Origin: a phage | Sequence record: PX880099.1 | Length of the DNA stretch: 64,000 nt | Direction: 5' to 3' (one strand) | In this document: in pieces, positions 3,569 through 62,705 of the stretch | Layout: each line of letters begins with the position of its first letter | Numbering within the stretch: position 1 is the stretch's first letter | Made by a program: the position numbers and the translations under genes | The notes under the pieces: generated by a model | The model's input: the letters and a program-made list of their open reading frames with translations, nothing else | Told to the model about the DNA's origin: nothing | Database searches by the model: none

Positions 3569-4200
3569 TTACACTTATTGCGCTGGCTTATTATTAGCAT
3601 TATATGTAATTACCAAGATCATAACATTAGCGCAATAACAATAATCATTGTGGTAATTACGTAAGGAAACAATTAGCATGGCAATAATTATGGGGGCAAT
3701 GGGAGGATGATTATCATCATTCCGATACATTGCACACTATGCACATAATAGAATAAAAAGCAATAATTTTGGGGGCGAAATGTTACCGCCACAGGCGGGA
3801 ATGTTGAGCAAGTTCTCTTAAACGTAAATAAAATCAGAATAATCTTGATTTATTTTAGTTTTTATGTTAATAAACGTTTAAATAATAATCATTCTCATAT
3901 AAATAATAGTCTGCTTGTCATGAGCGGGATTAGTTGACAATGTTCCGTCATATGATGAGGTTGCCAAGCCATTGATAAATAAGTGTTTGTGTGATTTATA
4001 ATCAGGTGGCCCACCTTGTCGCTATGTTGGCATGAGCCTTGCATAAGTCATTGAATACGAATGATAATTATTCTCATTCGCATGATATTTGGGAATTGTC
4101 GCTGCGTGGACCTGACGGCCCGAAAATTCGCGTTAAGCACTTCTTACGTATGCACCATGATTTTTGCCATATCATATTGATTCTATTAGATATTCTTGCC

Positions 4201-18202: not shown

Positions 18203-18622
18203 ATGTTAGGTAACATCAAAGCTTTTTTCAAACGTATTGTTGAAGGAAGTCCAACAGAAGGTGCATTAGGAAGATCTCTAACAGGAGAACCCCTTGCCAT
18301 AATTTCTATCAGTCGGCATGGTGGATATTCCATTCGACAAACACCTTTAGGTATAGAAGGTAGTATGCTTTCTTGGACAATATCTCAAGTTGGTGATAAC
18401 AGACTTGCAGCTATAGCGTTACTTCGTGGGGAGTATGACTATTGTTTATCAGCATCTTGTAAAAAGCACCTCATAGAGCACATTAGAGACAGAGTAGAAA
18501 GAGAAGGCGGATACTTCTTCGAAACTAAGAGAAACGAACAAGGAACTCTTGACTTCACTAAGGTTTACTGGGACAATCATACTCGTCAAACTGTTGAACA
18601 ACTTCTGGAGGAAAGATGTTAA
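18203..18622 (+). CDS. hypothetical protein (139 aa)
   Basis: SD AAGGGGGACTTATG. Confidence 0.55.
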   Translation: MLGNIKAFFKRIVEGSPTEGALGRSLTGEPLAIISISRHGGYSIRQTPLGIEGSMLSWTISQVGDNRLAAIALLRGEYDYCLSASCKKHLIEHIRDRVEREGGYFFETKRNEQGTLDFTKVYWDNHTRQTVEQLLEERC

Positions 18623-18825
18623 AAGCTTTTGCTGTATACTCTACTGTAGGATTCTTTTATTGGATTATAGTTATTGTCGGATGTTGGTTAGGTTCTTGTG
18701 TTGTGATGGGAGAATGGTTAACATACAATGTATTCGAATGGGATGTAGTTTGTAGATCATTACTTGTTATATGGACTGCTATTGTTTGTTGGATAACTGT
18801 TAGTCTAACATTAGATCTATATTGA
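18616..18825 (+). CDS. small membrane protein (69 aa, 2 TM)
   Basis: Hydrophobic stretches FFYWIIVIVGCWLGSCVV and LLVIWTAIVCWITV. Confidence 0.5.
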   Translation: MLKAFAVYSTVGFFYWIIVIVGCWLGSCVVMGEWLTYNVFEWDVVCRSLLVIWTAIVCWITVSLTLDLY

Positions 18826-19118
18826 TTAATAGATGGTAGATAGATGATCATAGTTTATCTACCTTCACTTACGTTTCATACCTCACTATCGTGAGTAACA
18901 TGAAACATTATTATATAGAAATCTACTACTCGCTATCGCTCGTAAACATATGTTTAGGGTACCATACTTTTTTGAAAAAGTCAATGGTGACTCACCTATC
19001 AATTATCTGTTTAAGATAAGTCTTACCTATCAATCTAACTCTTAACTAGTATTGCACCTATAGTAAGACTATTCCTATAGTTATTAACCCTCTTCTTCTG
19101 TAGAATGTAATTAGATCC

Positions 19119-57797: not shown

Positions 57798-57893
57798 TTC
57801 TTACCTCCTTTGTTGTCAAAATAGCTTACCAGAACATCGTGAACCACACAAATGGCGAAAATCAGAACAATTGTTGCCAGGACTGGGTGCTCA

Positions 57894-58217
57894 CTAATTA
57901 GTGCTATCATCTTTAACTACCTCCAGTTGCCTTTCGAGTTTAACTTTGTTTGAGAACTGATAATGACACAGCTTACAATCAATGTCAACAATCTGATCGT
58001 GATTTAACCCTACAATTTTAACTTCCTTTGCACCATCCCACTCTAAGTATTCGAAGTCTGATAAACAACTACTCTTACTTAAAATAAAATCCACCTGTTT
58101 CCACTCCACCTGCATATCATCGATATGATAAGCTGCACAGAATACATCATGGTAGTAAAATGCTATCATAACCATCTTTTCATCAACAGCAACTACTTCC
58201 CGCCTTGTAAATCTCAT
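57894..58217 (-). CDS. hypothetical protein (107 aa), first gene of leftward block
   Basis: SD AGGAGG before ATG on reverse strand. Confidence 0.55.
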   Translation of the reverse strand: MRFTRREVVAVDEKMVMIAFYYHDVFCAAYHIDDMQVEWKQVDFILSKSSCLSDFEYLEWDGAKEVKIVGLNHDQIVDIDCKLCHYQFSNKVKLERQLEVVKDDSTN

Positions 58218-58470
58218 TCTAGCCTCCTAAACGCGTCTCTGACGCACTTTTTATATATAAGATGATAAATCACCTTACCTCATAAGTAAACTTGCTCCAC
58301 GAGCCTCTTATGAAGCTTACGTCATAGGTTATACTATTGCTACCTATTTAAGCAAGTTTTTGCACACAGAAAATAATTTTTAATAAAACTCTTGACTTTT
58401 GTGTTCGAAGTATGCTACCCTAGAAATCTATTAACGAGCGCAGCGAGTTAAGGTTTTAGGTTGTTGATGT

Positions 58471-58505
58471 AGTACTCTGTACTCAAGTACTGTACTCCGT
58501 ACTAG
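58471..58505. repeat. tandem GTACT-containing iterons
   Basis: AGTACTCTGTACTCAAGTACTGTACTCCGTACTAG; further GTACAG copies at 58562-58585 and 58659-58668. Confidence 0.6.
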
Positions 58506-58506
58506 A

Positions 58507-58546
58507 TTAATAATTATTAAATATTCATAATAAATAATTATTAGAT
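58507..58546. repeat. AT-rich block with AATAATTATT direct repeats
   Basis: AATAATTATT at 58509 and 58535. Confidence 0.5.
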
Positions 58547-58636
58547 CTAACAAATAGGTACAGTGTATCAGAACTGGTATGTACAGATCAACTTCTATCA
58601 ATTAAAAATAAAATAATAAATTATTATAAATAATAC

Positions 58637-58665
58637 TTGATTTATAGATTAGTATGAAGTACAGT
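58637..58665 (+). promoter_or_regulatory. rightward sigma70-like promoter (TTGATT-17-TACAGT)
   Basis: TTGATT 58637-58642; TACAGT 58660-58665; 33 nt before ATG 58698. Confidence 0.4.
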
Positions 58666-58697
58666 ACGAAACATCTTAACAAGAATGGAGGTGTGCA

Positions 58698-58883
58698 ATG
58701 ATTAGTGAGAATCCGTGCAAATGGCATCATGTGCCTATTAAAGATTGTATGTCTTGTAATCCACGTTCTATTTATAACATTGCATCTTATGACGATGACA
58801 ATGTGTTAGACGATGATGAAGGCTGGGAGGATTTAGATTGGACTGGTTATGAAACCAAAAAGGATAAAATTATTCCTAGTTGA
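58698..58883 (+). CDS. hypothetical Cys-containing acidic protein (61 aa)
   Basis: SD GGAGGTGTGCAATG. Confidence 0.5.
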   Translation: MISENPCKWHHVPIKDCMSCNPRSIYNIASYDDDNVLDDDEGWEDLDWTGYETKKDKIIPS

Positions 58884-58920
58884 CTTAAGATATCCTTCGT
58901 GCTAAACTAGAAGTGAGGAG

Positions 58921-59172
58921 ATGCCGATCACTCCCCATTTGGGGTTCGAAGGATATATGCAAAATAGCTTTTATTTTAGGTGCCGTGCTTGTAATAGGCA
59001 TTTGACAAACCACTCCAGACGTGATAAAAATGGAGTCATCAAGGAATCAGACCTCTGTTCTATTTGCACAGGTTTGGCTTTTGATGATAGTCCCGAAAGG
59101 GTTTATCAGCATCAATGTATAACAGACGTTCTCGTGTCAAACTTGGTAGAGGACGAACAACTAACAGATTAG
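58921..59172 (+). CDS. zinc-finger protein (83 aa)
   Basis: CRACNRH...CSICTG; SD GAGGAGATG. Confidence 0.5.
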   Translation: MPITPHLGFEGYMQNSFYFRCRACNRHLTNHSRRDKNGVIKESDLCSICTGLAFDDSPERVYQHQCITDVLVSNLVEDEQLTD

Positions 59173-59180
59173 GAGGAACA

Positions 59181-59429
59181 ATGTCTCTATTAGAAAAACA
59201 CGTGTTTGAAGATGGTAACGGCAATGCAGTTTTTCTTTTCCATCCAGAAAAATACACATCTGAAAACAATGGTACAACTTCTATTGTAATCACTAAAGAT
59301 GTTAAAGTTATTGATTTCTTGGCTCTGATGCGAGAGATGGATCTTGAAATTAATACTTTTAACGCAGAAGCTTTGGTTGTTGCTCTTCTGGAAAAGAAAG
59401 ATAGTGAAGAAGTAGCAGAATATGCTTAA
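59181..59429 (+). CDS. hypothetical protein (82 aa)
   Basis: ATG 59181 after SD AGGAGG. Confidence 0.5.
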   Translation: MSLLEKHVFEDGNGNAVFLFHPEKYTSENNGTTSIVITKDVKVIDFLALMREMDLEINTFNAEALVVALLEKKDSEEVAEYA

Positions 59430-59436
59430 ATAACTA

Positions 59437-59466
59437 TTGACAAACGTATCCTTCATATGTTAGGAT
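59437..59466 (+). promoter_or_regulatory. promoter, tRNA-cluster type (TTGACA-N11-ATGTTAGGAT)
   Basis: TTGACA 59437-59442; shares ATGTTAG(R) downstream element with promoters at 60025 and 61189. Confidence 0.5.
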
Positions 59467-59479
59467 ACGTTCATCAAGT

Positions 59480-59670
59480 GTGGTAACAGGGTCGTTGACT
59501 TTTGTTAAGAGGGGCTTGCACTGCGGATAGTGTTAGAGACTACTTCTTCAGAGGTTAGCTACCAAAGAGGAAAAGGAATAGTCTCGGCTCAAGAACTTTT
59601 ACGCTGAAAGTTGGGCTTGGTCTTAGAGAATGTAGCGGTTCTCTACAATCGTCAGCGTCTCTGTTACCAC
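59480..59670 (+). ncRNA. candidate structured small RNA / tRNA precursor leader
   Basis: GTGGTAACAG (59480-59489) is the exact reverse complement of CTGTTACCAC (59661-59670); internal stem GAGACTA/TAGTCTC (59536/59579); no ORF; sits between promoter 59437 and tRNA-Met. Confidence 0.35.
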
Positions 59671-59676
59671 ATTTAT

Positions 59677-59751
59677 GGCCCTGTAGCTCAATGGGAGAGC
59701 TGTCGGCTCATAACCGATAGGTAGCTGGATCGAAACCAGCCAGGGCCACCA
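59677..59751 (+). tRNA. tRNA-Met (CAT), elongator type or Ile-lysidine
   Basis: Hand-folded cloverleaf: acceptor GGCCCTG/CAGGGCC, anticodon loop CTCATAA, T-arm GCTGG-ATCGAAA-CCAGC, CCA encoded. Confidence 0.75.
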
Positions 59752-59753
59752 AC

Positions 59754-59828
59754 GTCTTTATGGTGTAATGGATAGCACAGGAGTCTTCTAAACTCTTAGT
59801 CAAGGTTCGATTCCTTGTAAAGACACCA
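59754..59828 (+). tRNA. tRNA-Arg (TCT)
   Basis: Acceptor GTCTTTA/TAAAGAC, anticodon loop CTTCTAA, T-arm CAAGG-TTCGATT-CCTTG, CCA encoded. Confidence 0.75.
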
Positions 59829-60024
59829 GAACATTTTAACATGAATTAGCTCAAGTGATTTGAACCCACTACTGATCATGGTGGCAGAGAATGAGGCAAG
59901 TATGTCAGAAATTATAAACAAAGGCCACGGTTATATTAGAAGACATAAATGCTCGAAGAGCACCGTTCGTGGAGAACGGGGGTTGGTGGAGTCACCATTC
60001 ATGGTAAAATGTTTTAAAAAACTA

Positions 60025-60059
60025 TTGACAACAAACATTATTTTATGTTAGATTATAAG
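60025..60059 (+). promoter_or_regulatory. promoter, tRNA-cluster type (TTGACA-N11-ATGTTAGATT)
   Basis: TTGACA 60025-60030; ATGTTAGAT 60045-60053. Confidence 0.5.
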
Positions 60060-60062
60060 TAT

Positions 60063-60153
60063 GGAAGGGCAAATCGACGTGGCGACGAAAACGGTCTTGA
60101 AAACCGCCGAGCTTGAAAGAGCCTTGGGAGTTCGACTCTCCCTCCTTCCGCCA
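60063..60153 (+). tRNA. tRNA-Ser (TGA), long variable arm, atypical D-arm
   Basis: Acceptor GGAAGGG/TCCTTCC, discriminator G, anticodon arm ACGGT-CTTGAAA-ACCGC like E. coli Ser-UGA, T-arm GGGAG-TTCGACT-CTCCC; D-stem could not be paired by hand. Confidence 0.55.
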
Positions 60154-60158
60154 GATTA

Positions 60159-60244
60159 GGTAGATTGGTGAAATGGTAGCCACAACAGTTTGCTAAACTG
60201 TAGTCGGAAACGGCGTGTAGGTTCGAGTCCTACATCTACCGCCA
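60159..60244 (+). tRNA. tRNA-Ser (GCT), type II
   Basis: Acceptor GGTAGAT/ATCTACC, anticodon loop TTGCTAA, long variable arm, T-arm GTAGG-TTCGAGT-CCTAC. Confidence 0.75.
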
Positions 60245-60415
60245 AGTTATCTTTAATGTAGCTTGTTGCTCTTAGTTGCTTGGTGTAACTTTTTGGAAGG
60301 ATGGCTGCAACCATCTTACTTTAATAGAGTAAACTTTCGGCAGATGGCCCCCACCATCTTACCGATACCTCATAGTCAGTGGTGCGAACACTGGCTATTT
60401 TAAAGATAATTTTAT

Positions 60416-60490
60416 ACATCGTTAGCCAAGCGGTAAGGCACTTGACTTTTAATCAAGGGAGCGAAGGTTCGAATCCTTCACGATGTACCA
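60416..60490 (+). tRNA. tRNA-Lys (TTT)
   Basis: Acceptor ACATCGT/ACGATGT, anticodon arm CTTGA-CTTTTAA-TCAAG, T-arm GAAGG-TTCGAAT-CCTTC. Confidence 0.7.
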
Positions 60491-60495
60491 AACAC

Positions 60496-60582
60496 GTAGG
60501 TATCGCATAGCGGCAATTGCTGGAGACTGTAAATCTCCTGCCCTTCGGGGCTTCGTTGGTTCGAGTCCAACTACCTGCACCA
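60496..60582 (+). tRNA. tRNA-Tyr (GTA), type II
   Basis: Acceptor GTAGGTA/TACCTGC, anticodon arm GGAGA-CTGTAAA-TCTCC, long variable arm, T-arm GTTGG-TTCGAGT-CCAAC. Confidence 0.75.
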
Positions 60583-60589
60583 AATTAAA

Positions 60590-60674
60590 GATGGATTGGC
60601 CTAGTGGTTGGGCGACGGACTGTTAATCCGTGAACGAAAGTTCTAGCAAGGTTCAAATCCTTGATCCATCGCCA
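60590..60674 (+). tRNA. unusual type II tRNA with anticodon GTT (Asn codons) on a Ser/Tyr-like scaffold
   Basis: Perfect acceptor GATGGAT/ATCCATC, discriminator G, 3-bp D-stem GCC/GGC, anticodon arm ACGGA-CTGTTAA-TCCGT, 15-nt extra arm GAACGAAAGTTCTAG, T-arm CAAGG-TTCAAAT-CCTTG. Confidence 0.6.
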
Positions 60675-60753
60675 AATAGTGCTTGTAGAGTTAATAGAAA
60701 CCTCTAGAATTTTCTAGAATTGTAGATATCAAATCCTACCAAGCAAATATTTT

Positions 60754-60828
60754 GCTCCTATCGTATAACGGCTATTACGGTTGCCTTGTAAGCAACTTAT
60801 CAGGGTTCGAGTCCTTGTGGGAGCACCA
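60754..60828 (+). tRNA. tRNA-Thr (TGT)
   Basis: Acceptor GCTCCTA/TGGGAGC, anticodon arm GTTGC-CTTGTAA-GCAAC, T-loop TTCGAGT. Confidence 0.7.
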
Positions 60829-60850
60829 ATTTAACTCTAAAGGAGTGTAT

Positions 60851-61174
60851 GTGACAGAAAAAGAGTTAGAGAAATATTTTAATATCAATGTTTTCGATGG
60901 TTTTGATGATATTGAAGATGTTGAAAGATATTATGAAGTAGAGTTAGATAAGGATAACATTGTAATTCTTTCTGCCACTTATGATTGTGCATATTATGAA
61001 GGTGAATCTCACGTTTATTTCTATGATATGAAAACATCTTTGTTTTATGAAGTACACGCATATCATTGTTCTTGTTATGGCTTAGAAGGTCAGTGGGAAC
61101 CTGAAGAAATAGGTGATTTGAGCTTTACGGTTGCATATCTAAACAGACGTGGTGCATCTACTATTTTAAAATAA
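60851..61174 (+). CDS. hypothetical protein inside tRNA cluster (107 aa, GTG start)
   Basis: SD TAAAGGAG then GTG 60851; track ORF (from TTG 60752) trimmed because it overlaps tRNA-Thr. Confidence 0.5.
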   Translation: MTEKELEKYFNINVFDGFDDIEDVERYYEVELDKDNIVILSATYDCAYYEGESHVYFYDMKTSLFYEVHAYHCSCYGLEGQWEPEEIGDLSFTVAYLNRRGASTILK

Positions 61175-61188
61175 ATATTAAAAGCCTC

Positions 61189-61218
61189 TTGACAAAGGGG
61201 CTAATAATATGTTAGAGT
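61189..61218 (+). promoter_or_regulatory. promoter, tRNA-cluster type (TTGACA-N11-ATGTTAGAGT)
   Basis: TTGACA 61189-61194; ATGTTAGAG 61209-61217. Confidence 0.5.
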
Positions 61219-61229
61219 AATATTGTTAA

Positions 61230-61304
61230 GCGGGTATAGTGTTAATGGTAGCATATGAGGTTTCCACCCTCCAGGTGCAGGTTCAAGTCCTGTTACTCGC
61301 TCCA
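61230..61304 (+). tRNA. tRNA-Gly (TCC)
   Basis: Acceptor GCGGGTA/TACTCGC, discriminator T, anticodon loop TTTCCAC, T-loop TTCAAGT. Confidence 0.7.
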
Positions 61305-61404
61305 AGATTATTTAAATGGAATCGCTAGAGAAAATTTCTCTTTTCGCTCATGGTTTTCTCCTTCAAACTCTAGCGGTTCTTTTTAAGTGATTTTTTAGTT
61401 TTAT

Positions 61405-61479
61405 TGGAGATTAGCCTAGTGGGAAGGCAACGGCCTTTGAAGTCGTGATGACTAGGTTCGATTCCTAGATCTCCAGCCA
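61405..61479 (+). tRNA. tRNA-Gln (TTG)
   Basis: Acceptor TGGAGAT/ATCTCCA (U1-A72 as in E. coli Gln), discriminator G, anticodon loop CTTTGAA, T-arm CTAGG-TTCGATT-CCTAG. Confidence 0.7.
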
Positions 61480-61486
61480 ATATTTA

Positions 61487-61562
61487 CAGTGCGTAGCGCA
61501 GTTGGTAGCGTGGGAGCTTTGGACGCTTCAGGTCGCAGGTTCGAGTCCTGCCGCACTGACCA
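61487..61562 (+). tRNA. tRNA-Pro (TGG)
   Basis: Acceptor CAGTGCG/CGCACTG (C1-G72), anticodon arm GGAGC-TTTGGAC-GCTTC, T-arm GCAGG-TTCGAGT-CCTGC. Confidence 0.75.
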
Positions 61563-61567
61563 AATTT

Positions 61568-61642
61568 GCAGAGATAGCTGAGACGGATTAGTGCTACCCT
61601 GAAAAGGTAGAAAGGATGGATCGTTACCATCTCTCTGCACCA
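61568..61642 (+). tRNA. tRNA-Phe (GAA), non-canonical T-loop
   Basis: Acceptor GCAGAGA/TCTCTGC, anticodon arm CTACC-CTGAAAA-GGTAG, T-arm GATGG-ATCGTTA-CCATC. Confidence 0.6.
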
Positions 61643-61719
61643 AATAACACCATCCAAGGAGTAGACTTGGTTAACTGTCAATAGCACATTGAGGCTTCTT
61701 ACAGTGGTGTACTTATTAT

Positions 61720-61804
61720 GGCTAAGTGGTGGAATGGTATACACGATACGCTTAGAACGTATTGCCCCAAGGGATTGTGAGTTCGAGTCTCACCTTAGCT
61801 ACCA
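61720..61804 (+). tRNA. tRNA-Leu (TAG), type II
   Basis: Acceptor GGCTAAG/CTTAGCT, discriminator A, anticodon arm ATACG-CTTAGAA-CGTAT, long variable arm, T-arm GTGAG-TTCGAGT-CTCAC. Confidence 0.7.
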
Positions 61805-61819
61805 AATTATTAGATGTTT

Positions 61820-61898
61820 CGCGGGATAGAGGAGTCTGGTCGTCCTCGCCAGTTTCATATGCTGGAGATCGTTGGTTCAAATCCAACTCCCGTTACCA
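61820..61898 (+). tRNA. initiator-like tRNA-fMet (CAT)
   Basis: 5' CGCGGGA like E. coli initiator CGCGGGG; 1:72 mismatch (C/U); A11:U24 in D-stem; anticodon loop TTCATAT; T-arm GTTGG-TTCAAAT-CCAAC. Confidence 0.55.
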
Positions 61899-61917
61899 AA
61901 TTTTGCAAGGAGATAAA

Positions 61918-62331
61918 GTGACAGCCAAGAAATCAGCCCAGTTGGGAATGAACGTAAGTACCGCTACGGGCAGGTTAACAAAAGATATAATGTGGCGACT
62001 GATCGTTCAGACAAATCAGAACATGTGCTTTCATTGCGGTAAAGAAATGACGAGAGAAGACTTCTCCATCGAGCACAAAGTTCCTTGGTTGGATAGTGAA
62101 AACCCACAAGACTTATTTTTTGACTTGGACAATATTGCTTTCAGTCACTTATCCTGTAATGTTGCCGCAGCACGTAAGCCGAACAAAGGTATTATTCCTC
62201 ATGGAACATCATCAGGATATGATACTCACAAATGTAGGTGTGATGCATGCAAAGCAGCAAAAGCTGCAAGACGTAAAAAAGAATACACACCAGAAAAGCG
62301 CAGAGCAACTTACGAGCGTACTGGTAAATAG
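61918..62331 (+). CDS. HNH homing-endonuclease-like protein inside tRNA cluster
   Basis: CFHCGKEM...IEHKVPW...NIAFSHLSCN; GTG 61918 after SD AGGAG; track ORF (from 61762) trimmed because it overlaps tRNA genes. Confidence 0.65.
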   Translation: MTAKKSAQLGMNVSTATGRLTKDIMWRLIVQTNQNMCFHCGKEMTREDFSIEHKVPWLDSENPQDLFFDLDNIAFSHLSCNVAAARKPNKGIIPHGTSSGYDTHKCRCDACKAAKAARRKKEYTPEKRRATYERTGK

Positions 62332-62336
62332 ATAAT

Positions 62337-62419
62337 AGCCGGGTAGATTTAAAAGAGTATGGTACTCAATATGGCTCCAAACCATAGATCAGGGGGTTCG
62401 ATTCCTCACCTTGCTGCCA
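62337..62419 (+). tRNA. tRNA-Trp (CCA)-like, irregular (possible pseudo-tRNA)
   Basis: Anticodon arm TATGG-CTCCAAA-CCATA matches E. coli Trp loop; T-arm GGGGG-TTCGATT-CCTCA; acceptor AGCCGGG/CCTTGCT has 1 mismatch; extra nt between acceptor and D-stem. Confidence 0.35.
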
Positions 62420-62424
62420 ATTAT

Positions 62425-62500
62425 TGTGGTATCGTACAGATGGTTAGTACACTCGACCGATAATCGAGAAACAACGGTTCGACTCCGTTTACCACGACCA
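62425..62500 (+). tRNA. tRNA-Ile (GAT), C33 in anticodon loop
   Basis: Acceptor TGTGGTA/TACCACG, D-arm GTAC-AGATGGTTA-GTAC, anticodon arm CTCGA-CCGATAA-TCGAG, T-arm AACGG-TTCGACT-CCGTT. Confidence 0.55.
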
Positions 62501-62636: not shown

Positions 62637-62705
62637 GCTATCTATTGAATAAAACTTGACTTATTATTTTTTATATGTTAAGATAAAGTTTAGGAGGATT
62701 TTATT

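Follow-up and report, generated by a model that had tools for sequence, protein, structure and literature searches.

A conserved divergent gap in Phapecoctavirus DNA as a candidate early transcription hub with a structured leader

We analyzed a 480-bp non-coding gap (positions 58218-58697) in a 64,000-nucleotide stretch of phage DNA (sequence record PX880099.1; the whole stretch is called the window below), at the switch between a leftward 36-kb gene block and a rightward block. Several well-known control regions are instructive for comparison. The primary origin of phage T7 consists of the promoters phi1.1A and phi1.1B followed by an A/T-rich region, and phiOL and phiOR are the T7 replication promoters; in phage T4, oriF and oriG each combine a middle promoter with a downstream unwinding element. 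Iterons, as in lambda ori and plasmid oriV, are helically phased repeats of 17-22 bp that lie in or beside the initiator gene, and lambda ori depends on transcription through or near it. At the RNA level, T7 early mRNA and the lambda N leader carry RNase III processing hairpins.

Composite elements have also been described. At the divergence point of phage rV5, bidirectional host-type promoters were inferred, sigma70-like and many with an extended -10 (PMC3606486). The PeSL cassettes of T4-type phages are composites of an early sigma70 promoter and a stem-loop, repeated within the genome (PMC2839356). DNA mini-hairpins of the GCGNAGC/GCGNNAGC class are found at the primase sites of G4, St-1 and alpha3, at ssiA of RSF1010, and at the virion-polymerase promoters of N4 (2026 review, PMC13037366).

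The window comes from a Phapecoctavirus (Stephanstirmvirinae), an E. coli myovirus of ~150 kb in the phAPEC8-like clade; over 57800-59200 it is 98.4% identical to vB_Ec-G1 and ~94% identical to some 60 further members. The genome is organised in four gene blocks that diverge at two points and converge at two. The same four-block layout is seen in rV5, a member of another subfamily, and there too skew tracks transcription orientation; unlike rV5, the gap holds a promoter (P1) joined to a mini-hairpin as a module, a GTACT array and an extreme A/T tract, which are not described for that phage (PMC3606486). The most likely function of the gap, to which we give an even chance, is that of the principal early transcription hub of the phage, in which P1 would drive a structured, regulated leader. 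A transcription-activated replication origin at the same place would be compatible with this function: the two are not mutually exclusive.

Candidate divergent promoters in a conserved gap

Candidate promoters and the elements tied to them lie on both strands:

58262-58290, minus strand: P_L1 candidate, sigma70-type, from a consensus scan; TTTACT (58285-58290), 17 nt, TATCAT (58262-58267)
58328-58355, minus strand: P_L2, a weaker candidate read from the sequence; TTGCTT (58350-58355), 16 nt, TATAAC (58328-58333)
58392-58421, plus strand: P1; TTGACT, 18 nt, extended -10 TGc-TACCCT, predicted start at ~58428
58637-58665, plus strand: P2; TTGATT, 17 nt, TACAGT, with TAGATT in the spacer
58598-58636, plus strand: A/T block 2, which abuts the P2 -35 in the position of an UP element
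58880-58909, 59437-59467, 60025-60055, 61189-61219 and 62656-62685: near-identical extended -10 promoters of the P1 family, in the block of small open reading frames (ORFs) and tRNA genes
58233-58245, minus strand: GCGTC-AGA-GACGC, a small hairpin that the leftward 5' leader carries shortly before its Shine-Dalgarno sequence

Paired -35 and -10 hexamers of the sigma70 type, with a spacing of 16-18 nt, occur on both strands and are conserved in relatives (P_L1, P1, P2). The preliminary description had read the gap as a divergent control region with GTACT iterons, in the architecture of a replication origin or of a regulator-binding array at a divergent promoter pair. In sequence and conservation the divergent pair holds up, with conserved promoter elements of consensus quality on each strand and a tract resembling a DNA unwinding element (DUE); the iterons do not, as described below.

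P1 is invariant in 11 relatives, and the same element is present in phi92, in the Klebsiella phage FKP3 and in phiWec188. The pattern TTGAC-N-TACCCT has 2 matches in the window, compared with 0.09 expected. P1 belongs to the phage's own early promoter family, ctaTTGACA-N14-TATGTTAGAnTA, whose spread through the tRNA block suggests that the tRNA genes would be served by several independent strong early starts. In relatives P2 reads TTGACT...TATGTAGAGT; its spacer contains TAGAT(CT) in three clades, and A/T block 2 has the same placement in phi92, FKP3 and phiWec188. On the leftward side, the -35 of P_L1 and its spacer ATCACCTTACCTCA (58269-58282) are conserved across genera, in phi92 and phiWec188, and the P_L2 -10 is TATAGC in most relatives. 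We also noted that the P_L1 spacer, read on the minus strand as TGAGGTAAGGTGAT, resembles an extended Shine-Dalgarno sequence; such conservation is unusual in a promoter spacer, and the segment may serve as an operator or act at the RNA level in the leftward leader. The actual leftward Shine-Dalgarno sequence appears as CCTCC on the plus strand at 58223-58227. The leader hairpin next to it is invariant in 11 relatives and has a terminator-like score on the plus strand; no other intrinsic terminator was found within the gap.

The gap is strongly conserved. Its DNA is 96-97% identical in 56 records, while the 107-aa protein of the leftward neighbour has only 78% amino-acid identity to most relatives; the gap is thus more conserved than the left-hand gene, which points to purifying selection on the gap. 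Together with the 100% conservation of the 61-aa ORF on the right, this contrast also places a mosaic or recombination boundary at the left edge of the gap, at the 5' end of the 107-aa gene. An alignment of 11 genomes shows 97-99% conservation for each of P1, the mini-hairpin, the GTACT array and A/T block 1. The elements also follow one another in the same order in phi92, FKP3 and phiWec188 (P1, hairpin, variable spacer, A/T block, P2), although the sequence of the spacer does not align between these phages. Natural variants exist: phage nieznany lacks 58561-58627, part of the A/T tract included, and in the EP57 record the P2 -10 and leader are deleted.

A promoter-hairpin module in three copies

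Immediately downstream of P1 lies a small hairpin, and promoter and hairpin recur together elsewhere in the genome:

58431-58451, plus strand: mini-hairpin TTAA-CGAGCGCAGCGAG-TTAA, ten bases past the P1 -10 hexamer, strand-specific
58392-58451, plus strand: copy A of the module, in the gap; P1 and the CGAGCGCAGCGAG mini-hairpin
18929-18984, minus strand: copy B; TTGACT...TGgTACCCT...CGAGCGATAGCGAG, in a 360-bp gap between plus-strand genes
~112.75 kb of vB_Ec-G1: copy C, the third copy
58542-58549: TAGATCTA palindrome, which together with TAGATT half-sites at 58503 and 58645 forms a dense TAGAT/ATCTA cluster
58449-58463, plus strand: short repeat AAGGTTT(T), with 2 units here and 3 in anhysbys and UP17, a copy-number polymorphism

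The core of the mini-hairpin is GC-GCA-GC (GCGCAGC, 58438-58444), with a tandem G.A box, 5'-CGAG-3' / 5'-CGAG-3', on each side, and the element is invariant in 11 relatives. Across copies the loop is GCA, GAA, GATA or GGGA. At least three extra flanking pairs can form in 26% of 65 distinct instances, compared with 5.7% in shuffled sequences (0 of 2000 shuffles reached 26%), and this covariation of the flanks argues that the hairpin forms. Nearest-neighbour folding gives the mini-hairpin no notable stability, a result that is uninformative because the energy model has no terms for GNA loops or sheared G.A pairs.

The core fits the GCGNAGC/GCGNNAGC class, that is, GC-GNA-GC or GC-GNNA-GC on one strand. 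The gap element thus resembles the mini-hairpins of G4, St-1 and alpha3, RSF1010 ssiA and N4 in its core rule, in its strand specificity and in lying where nucleic-acid synthesis would start (PMC13037366). Those hairpins are in single-stranded DNA or extruded by supercoiling, and are read by dedicated primases or by N4 RNA polymerase; the gap mini-hairpin differs in that it is part of duplex DNA, 10-30 nt past a sigma70 promoter, and has tandem G.A pairs and covarying flanks. It could act in RNA as readily as in DNA.

Other Stephanstirmvirinae genomes in IMG/VR likewise give three module matches each. Copy B is 97-100% conserved within the genus and is an orphan promoter whose antisense transcript would enter a 69-aa membrane-protein gene (18616-18825, plus strand) from its 3' end. 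The hairpins of its leader, read from the sequence, have stems that covary in relatives, and the copy looks either like an orphan promoter or as if it encoded a structured RNA of ~110-130 nt. Downstream of copy B we observed two further hairpins and then the densest TAGAT/ATCTA cluster of the genome (18753-18921).

TAGAT is dense in all three leaders: within 215 nt past each hairpin there are 11 occurrences in all, compared with 0.8 expected, and the three densest TAGAT/ATCTA clusters of the genome (152 kb) are exactly the three module leaders. The strand bias of these motifs is small (11:7). Each leader also contains one TAGATCTA palindrome, together 3 of the 8 in the genome. In other genera the association of TAGAT with the module is only partial, and copies in Justusliebigvirus lie ~85 nt upstream of a gene start, which indicates that they act as ordinary mRNA promoters.

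The combination of promoter, mini-hairpin and TAGAT leader is annotated in no deposited genome, has no match in Rfam and is not described in the literature searched. Like the PeSL cassettes, it joins an early sigma70 promoter with a stem-loop in a conserved composite that is repeated within a genome; it differs from them in having only three copies, in the tiny hairpin downstream of the promoter, in having no U tract and in not flanking shuffled ORFs. TACCCT/mini-hairpin matches also turned up in unrelated IMG/VR contigs; we make no firm claim of kinship for them, since by a rough estimate the chance expectation about equals the number of matches outside two real families. As a separate observation, one contig (L011, 2024-2161) and ~20 similar ones in IMG/VR, apparently marine, carry a divergent pair TACCCTAT-CCCCCCC-CGAGCGAAGCGAG, immediately before genes for a large terminase and an SU10-type portal protein.

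The GTACT array and GTAC avoidance

Downstream of the mini-hairpin, the P1 leader of copy A contains a cluster of GTAC motifs:

58471-58505, plus strand: GTACT array, five units at 58472, 58479, 58487, 58492 and 58499, two of them AGTACT palindromes
58558, 58581 and 58659: GTACAG, with a further GTAC at 58664
58459-58515, plus strand: predicted imperfect 20-bp RNA hairpin, formed by array units 1/5 and 2/4 and their flanks

The preliminary description had located five GTACT units, extra GTACAG copies and AATAATTATT repeats in an A/T stretch, and all of these were confirmed. The five units do not form a regular tandem array as it had supposed: their spacings are 7, 8, 5 and 7 bp, Tandem Repeats Finder makes no call there, and the only repeat that this program reports is a period-17 A/T repeat. 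The further term of the preliminary description, iterons, is not supported. The units are 5 bp long and irregularly spaced, not three or more helically phased direct repeats of ~17-22 bp; there is no recognisable adjacent initiator gene with which they could be conserved; phiWec188 and phi92 do not have them; and in BI-EHEC, KKP 3954 and dw-ec mutations have removed them. What the array shares with iteron origins is that its repeats adjoin an A/T-rich tract; it is unlike them in its 5-bp units, its 5-8 bp spacing, the absence of a recognisable initiator nearby and the dispensability of its units in isolates.

The clustering is highly significant. GTAC occurs 63 times in the window, compared with 173-225 expected, and over 153 kb it is the most depleted of the 256 tetramers (observed/expected, O/E, 0.34). 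Nine of its occurrences fall within 196 bp and five within 32 bp, which 0 of 20,000 random placements matched; the Poisson probability of the 200-bp cluster is ~1e-12. The avoidance differs between lineages, as the O/E ratios for GTAC show:

Window genome / vB_Ec-G1: 0.33-0.34
phiWec-like loci (sample): 0.62
phi92-like loci (sample): 0.77
FKP3-like loci (sample): 0.79
BI-EHEC (50 kb; L095): 0.13
KKP 3954 (45 kb; L098): 0.18

Strong GTAC avoidance is thus specific to the phAPEC8-like clade. In phiWec188-like loci (L004, L005, L016, L069, L077) we observed that CTAG is the missing tetramer, with 0 copies compared with ~72 expected in 34 kb; since GTAC is only mildly depleted there (0.62), tetramer avoidance is clade-specific within one phage genus.

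Within its clade the array is well preserved: 62 of 65 relatives match it over 66 nt at 95% identity or more, and 39 are identical; it does not vary in copy number and is as conserved as P1 (98.7%). At the same position the sister lineages carry other repeats, namely AGATCT-type palindromes in phiWec188, ATACT in phi92 and a mix in FKP3. TACT is common to these lineages (13 occurrences, compared with 2.5 expected) and is the only shared motif, so that the G of GTAC is clade-specific. Modules B and C contain no GTACT: only copy A has the array, and only within the phAPEC8-like clade.

Three of the 65 records (BI-EHEC, KKP 3954 and dw-ec) have an eroded array and are otherwise ~98% identical. 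In KKP 3954 the loss is part of a genome-wide purge of GTAC through varied substitutions: 18 of 34 aligned sites are kept, compared with mostly 92-95% for control tetramers and 78% for CTAG. In BI-EHEC 21 of 36 aligned sites are lost, 20 of them by a G-to-A change on the plus strand, regardless of which strand is coding, and 6 of the 14 changes in coding sequence are non-synonymous; either a genuine mutational signature or miscalled bases at modified GTAC could explain the asymmetry. Because array-eroded phages have been isolated and propagated, neither GTAC identity nor the exact array is essential, which argues against initiator iterons. On this comparative evidence the GTACT array appears to be a clade-specific, modulatory and dispensable element.

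The array would also fold in RNA. The predicted hairpin has a free energy of -19.8 kcal/mol (z -3.0; z -3.95 for a 51-nt version), and on the minus strand z is -0.8; the plus-strand specificity arises from G.U pairs. BI-EHEC has one compensatory pair for pairing between units 1 and 3 (G58472A + C58490T), yet the nested minimum-free-energy fold is broken there, and the unit 1/unit 3 pairing is broken in phAPEC8 and KKP 3954. Its predicted size would suit RNase III processing or attenuation within an early leader. Like the RNase III hairpins of T7 and lambda, it is imperfect, ~20 bp long and placed in an untranslated early leader between promoter and first gene; unlike them, it is a predicted fold that consists of repeated GUAC palindromes and lacks conservation in other genera. 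No credible small ORFs were found on the plus strand across the array.

Side observations on DNA metabolism touch on the same motif. At 87.9-91.1 kb of vB_Ec-G1 (L087/L088) and 115.8-119.1 kb of KKP 3954 (L098), four glycosyltransferase genes lie beside the genes for the primase-helicase, an annotated DNA methyltransferase (which has no Pfam match) and the polymerase; a complete dTDP-rhamnose pathway is found in the DNA-metabolism block. Sugar modification of the DNA, as speculated by Olsen et al. (PMC7552041), could bear on the GTAC anomalies.

Transcription hub, origin and other explanations

The remaining part of the gap is dominated by its base composition:

58505-58654: 83% A+T, the least stable 150 bp of the ~152-kb genome
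58506-58545: A/T block 1, with AATAATTATT at 58509-58518 and 58533-58542
58546-58597: central segment, with GTACAG at 58558 and 58581
58487-58542 / 58612-58667: inverted repeat (56 nt), only 73% complementary, in low-complexity A/T sequence

The stability of 58505-58654 is -1.018 kcal/mol per bp, compared with a genome mean of -1.283, a deviation of ~5.5 standard deviations. The gap thus contains a DUE-like element of the sort found at both iteron-type and transcription-activated origins, and P1 (58392-58421) precedes the A/T tract (starting at 58505) in an order conserved in four clades, as in origins of the latter type. The next least stable stretches, also A/T-rich and observed at ~3800-3950 of the window and ~120.5 kb of vB_Ec-G1 (L088, 29517-29760), are in intergenic gaps of small-gene early blocks. 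In deposited genomes the only annotation of the gap is a 'repeat_region' on one arm of the A/T-rich inverted repeat.

GC skew does not locate an origin. The inflection that the preliminary description proposed to look for is present at 58 kb, but it coincides with the coding-strand switch: skew follows the four gene blocks and has two equal minima, at 58 kb of the window and at 114.5 kb of G1, the other divergence point. As an origin marker it is therefore confounded by gene orientation and by the equal second minimum. The authors of the rV5 study met the same problem, with GC and AT skew changes tracking transcription orientation (PMC3606486). DnaA boxes are not enriched (TTWTNCACA occurs 10 times in the window, compared with 10.6 expected, and once in the gap), and no recognisable initiator gene lies beside the gap. 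Our literature search found no report on origins or transcription starts in Phapecoctavirus or Stephanstirmvirinae, including any transcriptome of the subfamily. By its sequence features, the gap is a reasonable candidate for a replication origin.

How would an early transcription hub with a structured leader work? Host sigma70 RNA polymerase would start leftward at P_L1, with P_L2 possibly helping, and rightward at P1 and again at P2. From the extended -10 promoter of each of the three P1 units in the genome, a transcript would start that opens with the small invariant hairpin and continues as a TAGAT- and TAGATCTA-rich leader of ~200 nt; the leader of copy A would add the GTACT array, which in vivo may fold as the 20-bp plus-strand hairpin. 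A/T block 2 would act as the UP element of P2, and the TAGAT, AGATCT and AGTACT palindromes, one of them in the P2 spacer, would be the likeliest operators to be bound by a putative phage regulator. Several observations weigh against this account. The P1 -10, TACCCT, fits the consensus at 3 of 6 positions and is missed by a simple scan, although the extended TG is present. The loop variants of the mini-hairpin suit the DNA mini-hairpin rule better than the GNRA rule of RNA. The predicted array hairpin is weakened in BI-EHEC (-4.3 kcal/mol) and KKP 3954 (-7.7 kcal/mol) and has no counterpart in phi92. The A/T tract, the least stable DNA of the genome, exceeds what an UP element needs. Finally, the ~270-nt leader with an internal promoter for the 61-aa ORF, together with the gene-less module B, suggests that the modules do more than make mRNA.

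The leading competitor, which we consider possible though not probable, is a transcription-activated origin of the T7 primary or T4 oriF/oriG type. P1 transcription would enter the A/T tract, and the RNA would prime DNA synthesis or form an R-loop; the displaced non-template strand would fold the CGAGCG-N-AGCGAG DNA mini-hairpin, where the gp4-like primase-helicase would load or prime. On this view the genome would have three origins, one per module, without any need for the GTACT array. The placement fits, with the least stable 150 bp located 85 bp downstream of P1 and the promoter-then-A/T-tract architecture conserved across genera. So does the hairpin: it is strand-specific, of a class known at priming sites (PMC13037366), with loops that obey the DNA rule and covarying flanks. 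The phage also encodes a suitable replisome, comprising a Toprim + DnaB_C primase-helicase (gp4-like), a Pol I-type polymerase and SSB, and conservation is higher in the non-coding DNA than in the neighbouring gene. As in the T7 and T4 origins, a promoter lies directly upstream of the most meltable DNA, one copy is a gene-less orphan promoter (module B, which can be likened to T7 phiOL and phiOR), and there are several copies per genome; the pairing of a gp4-like primase-helicase with a Pol I-type polymerase is a further likeness to T7. Unlike those origins, the candidate in the gap would use host sigma70-type promoters and has an invariant strand-specific mini-hairpin between promoter and A/T tract. 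Against an origin, modules B and C do not have the extreme A/T tract, some modules in other genera sit before genes as plain promoters, and nieznany has lost part of the tract; GC skew is uninformative, a DnaA-box cluster and a recognisable nearby initiator gene are missing, and the mini-hairpin has no notable stability in nearest-neighbour folding, with the limits of that model. A more specific proposal, to which we lend tentative and lower credence, is that the three modules of P1, CGAGCG-N-AGCGAG mini-hairpin and TAGAT leader are the replication origins or priming sites of the Stephanstirmvirinae, with the gap copy, next to the most meltable DNA of the genome, as primary origin: host RNA polymerase would open the DNA, the displaced strand would fold into a G4/N4-type DNA mini-hairpin of unusual stability, and the gp4-like primase-helicase would load there.

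An array of duplex-DNA operators is unlikely to be the main function, though several features recommend it. This corresponds to the regulator-binding array of the preliminary description: a dimeric regulator encoded by the phage would bind GTACT/AGTACT and AGATCT/TAGATCTA and, at the switch from early to middle expression, act as a roadblock to P1 and a repressor of P2. Two copies of AGTACT, together with AGATCT and TAGATCTA, do form a cluster of short palindromes between two promoters, phiWec188 has AGATCT-type palindromes where the phAPEC8-like clade has AGTACT, TAGAT(CT) occupies the P2 spacer in three clades, and the near strand-neutrality of TAGAT/ATCTA suits recognition of duplex DNA. 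However, no DNA-binding protein is identifiable among the flanking genes, the 5-8 bp spacing would make successive sites overlap on different helix faces, most GTAC sites are mutated in three isolates, and GTACT is absent from modules B and C. That the array has no function at all, being neutral replication slippage in a spacer whose A/T richness is typical of phage intergenic DNA, we judge very improbable. In the AAGGTTT(T) repeat, only a few bases from the array, slippage does take place, and the array is missing in sister clades and eroded in three isolates; but 62 of 65 records keep it at 95% identity or more, 39 of them unchanged, despite the clade's strong selection against GTAC, it equals P1 in conservation without varying in copy number, other genera have TACT repeats at the corresponding place, and an A/T tract that is a 5.5-standard-deviation outlier is unlike typical intergenic DNA. 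Least probable of all is a P1-type pac site (as in phage P1), in which a short methylatable palindrome, present as five GTAC on the left and two on the right, would flank the cleavage region in two groups. The groups at 58472-58503 and 58659-58667 do lie around ~155 bp, GTAC is excluded from the rest of the genome, terL is in the same rightward block, and the marine contigs have a TACCCT/mini-hairpin pair right upstream of terL. However, terL is ~4.4 kb from the gap, beyond 14 tRNA genes and the lysis genes (vB_Ec-G1 annotation), with no small terminase gene adjacent; no deposited genome ends map to the gap for biological reasons, viable isolates have lost GTAC sites, and the annotated methyltransferase has no Pfam match.

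Neighbouring genes and significance

The gap is bordered by the following features:

57894-58217, minus strand: 107-aa ORF, first gene of the leftward 36-kb block, unknown function, PHROG 14390
58687-58691, plus strand: Shine-Dalgarno sequence GGAGG, preceding the 61-aa ORF
58698-58883, plus strand: 61-aa ORF, first gene of the rightward block, unknown function, 100% conserved
59677-62500: 14 tRNA genes, downstream of the gap

Neither flanking ORF has a Pfam match, and both match only PHROGs of unknown function. A protein-anchored search of IMG/VR with the 107-aa ORF gave no relatives, and the Seunavirus homologue of the 61-aa ORF is uninformative because it is not at a divergent gap. The gap has no similarity to E. 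coli genomes, and none of the Rfam 15 covariance models came near its gathering score on 58000-59700.

If the three modules were origins or priming sites, a single-stranded DNA priming signal so far found in microviruses, RSF1010 and N4 would extend to large double-stranded DNA phages. The GTAC pattern offers a natural experiment on restriction avoidance versus regulatory constraint: a single non-coding array concentrates the tetramer that the genome avoids most, and three isolates have purged it there as in the rest of the genome. Phages like phi92, phAPEC8 and rV5 are in wide use in therapy cocktails, and skew analysis has already failed for rV5. For this group the gap is a concrete, conserved target of 480 bp with three separately mutable sub-elements: the P1/mini-hairpin module, the GTACT array and the A/T tract.

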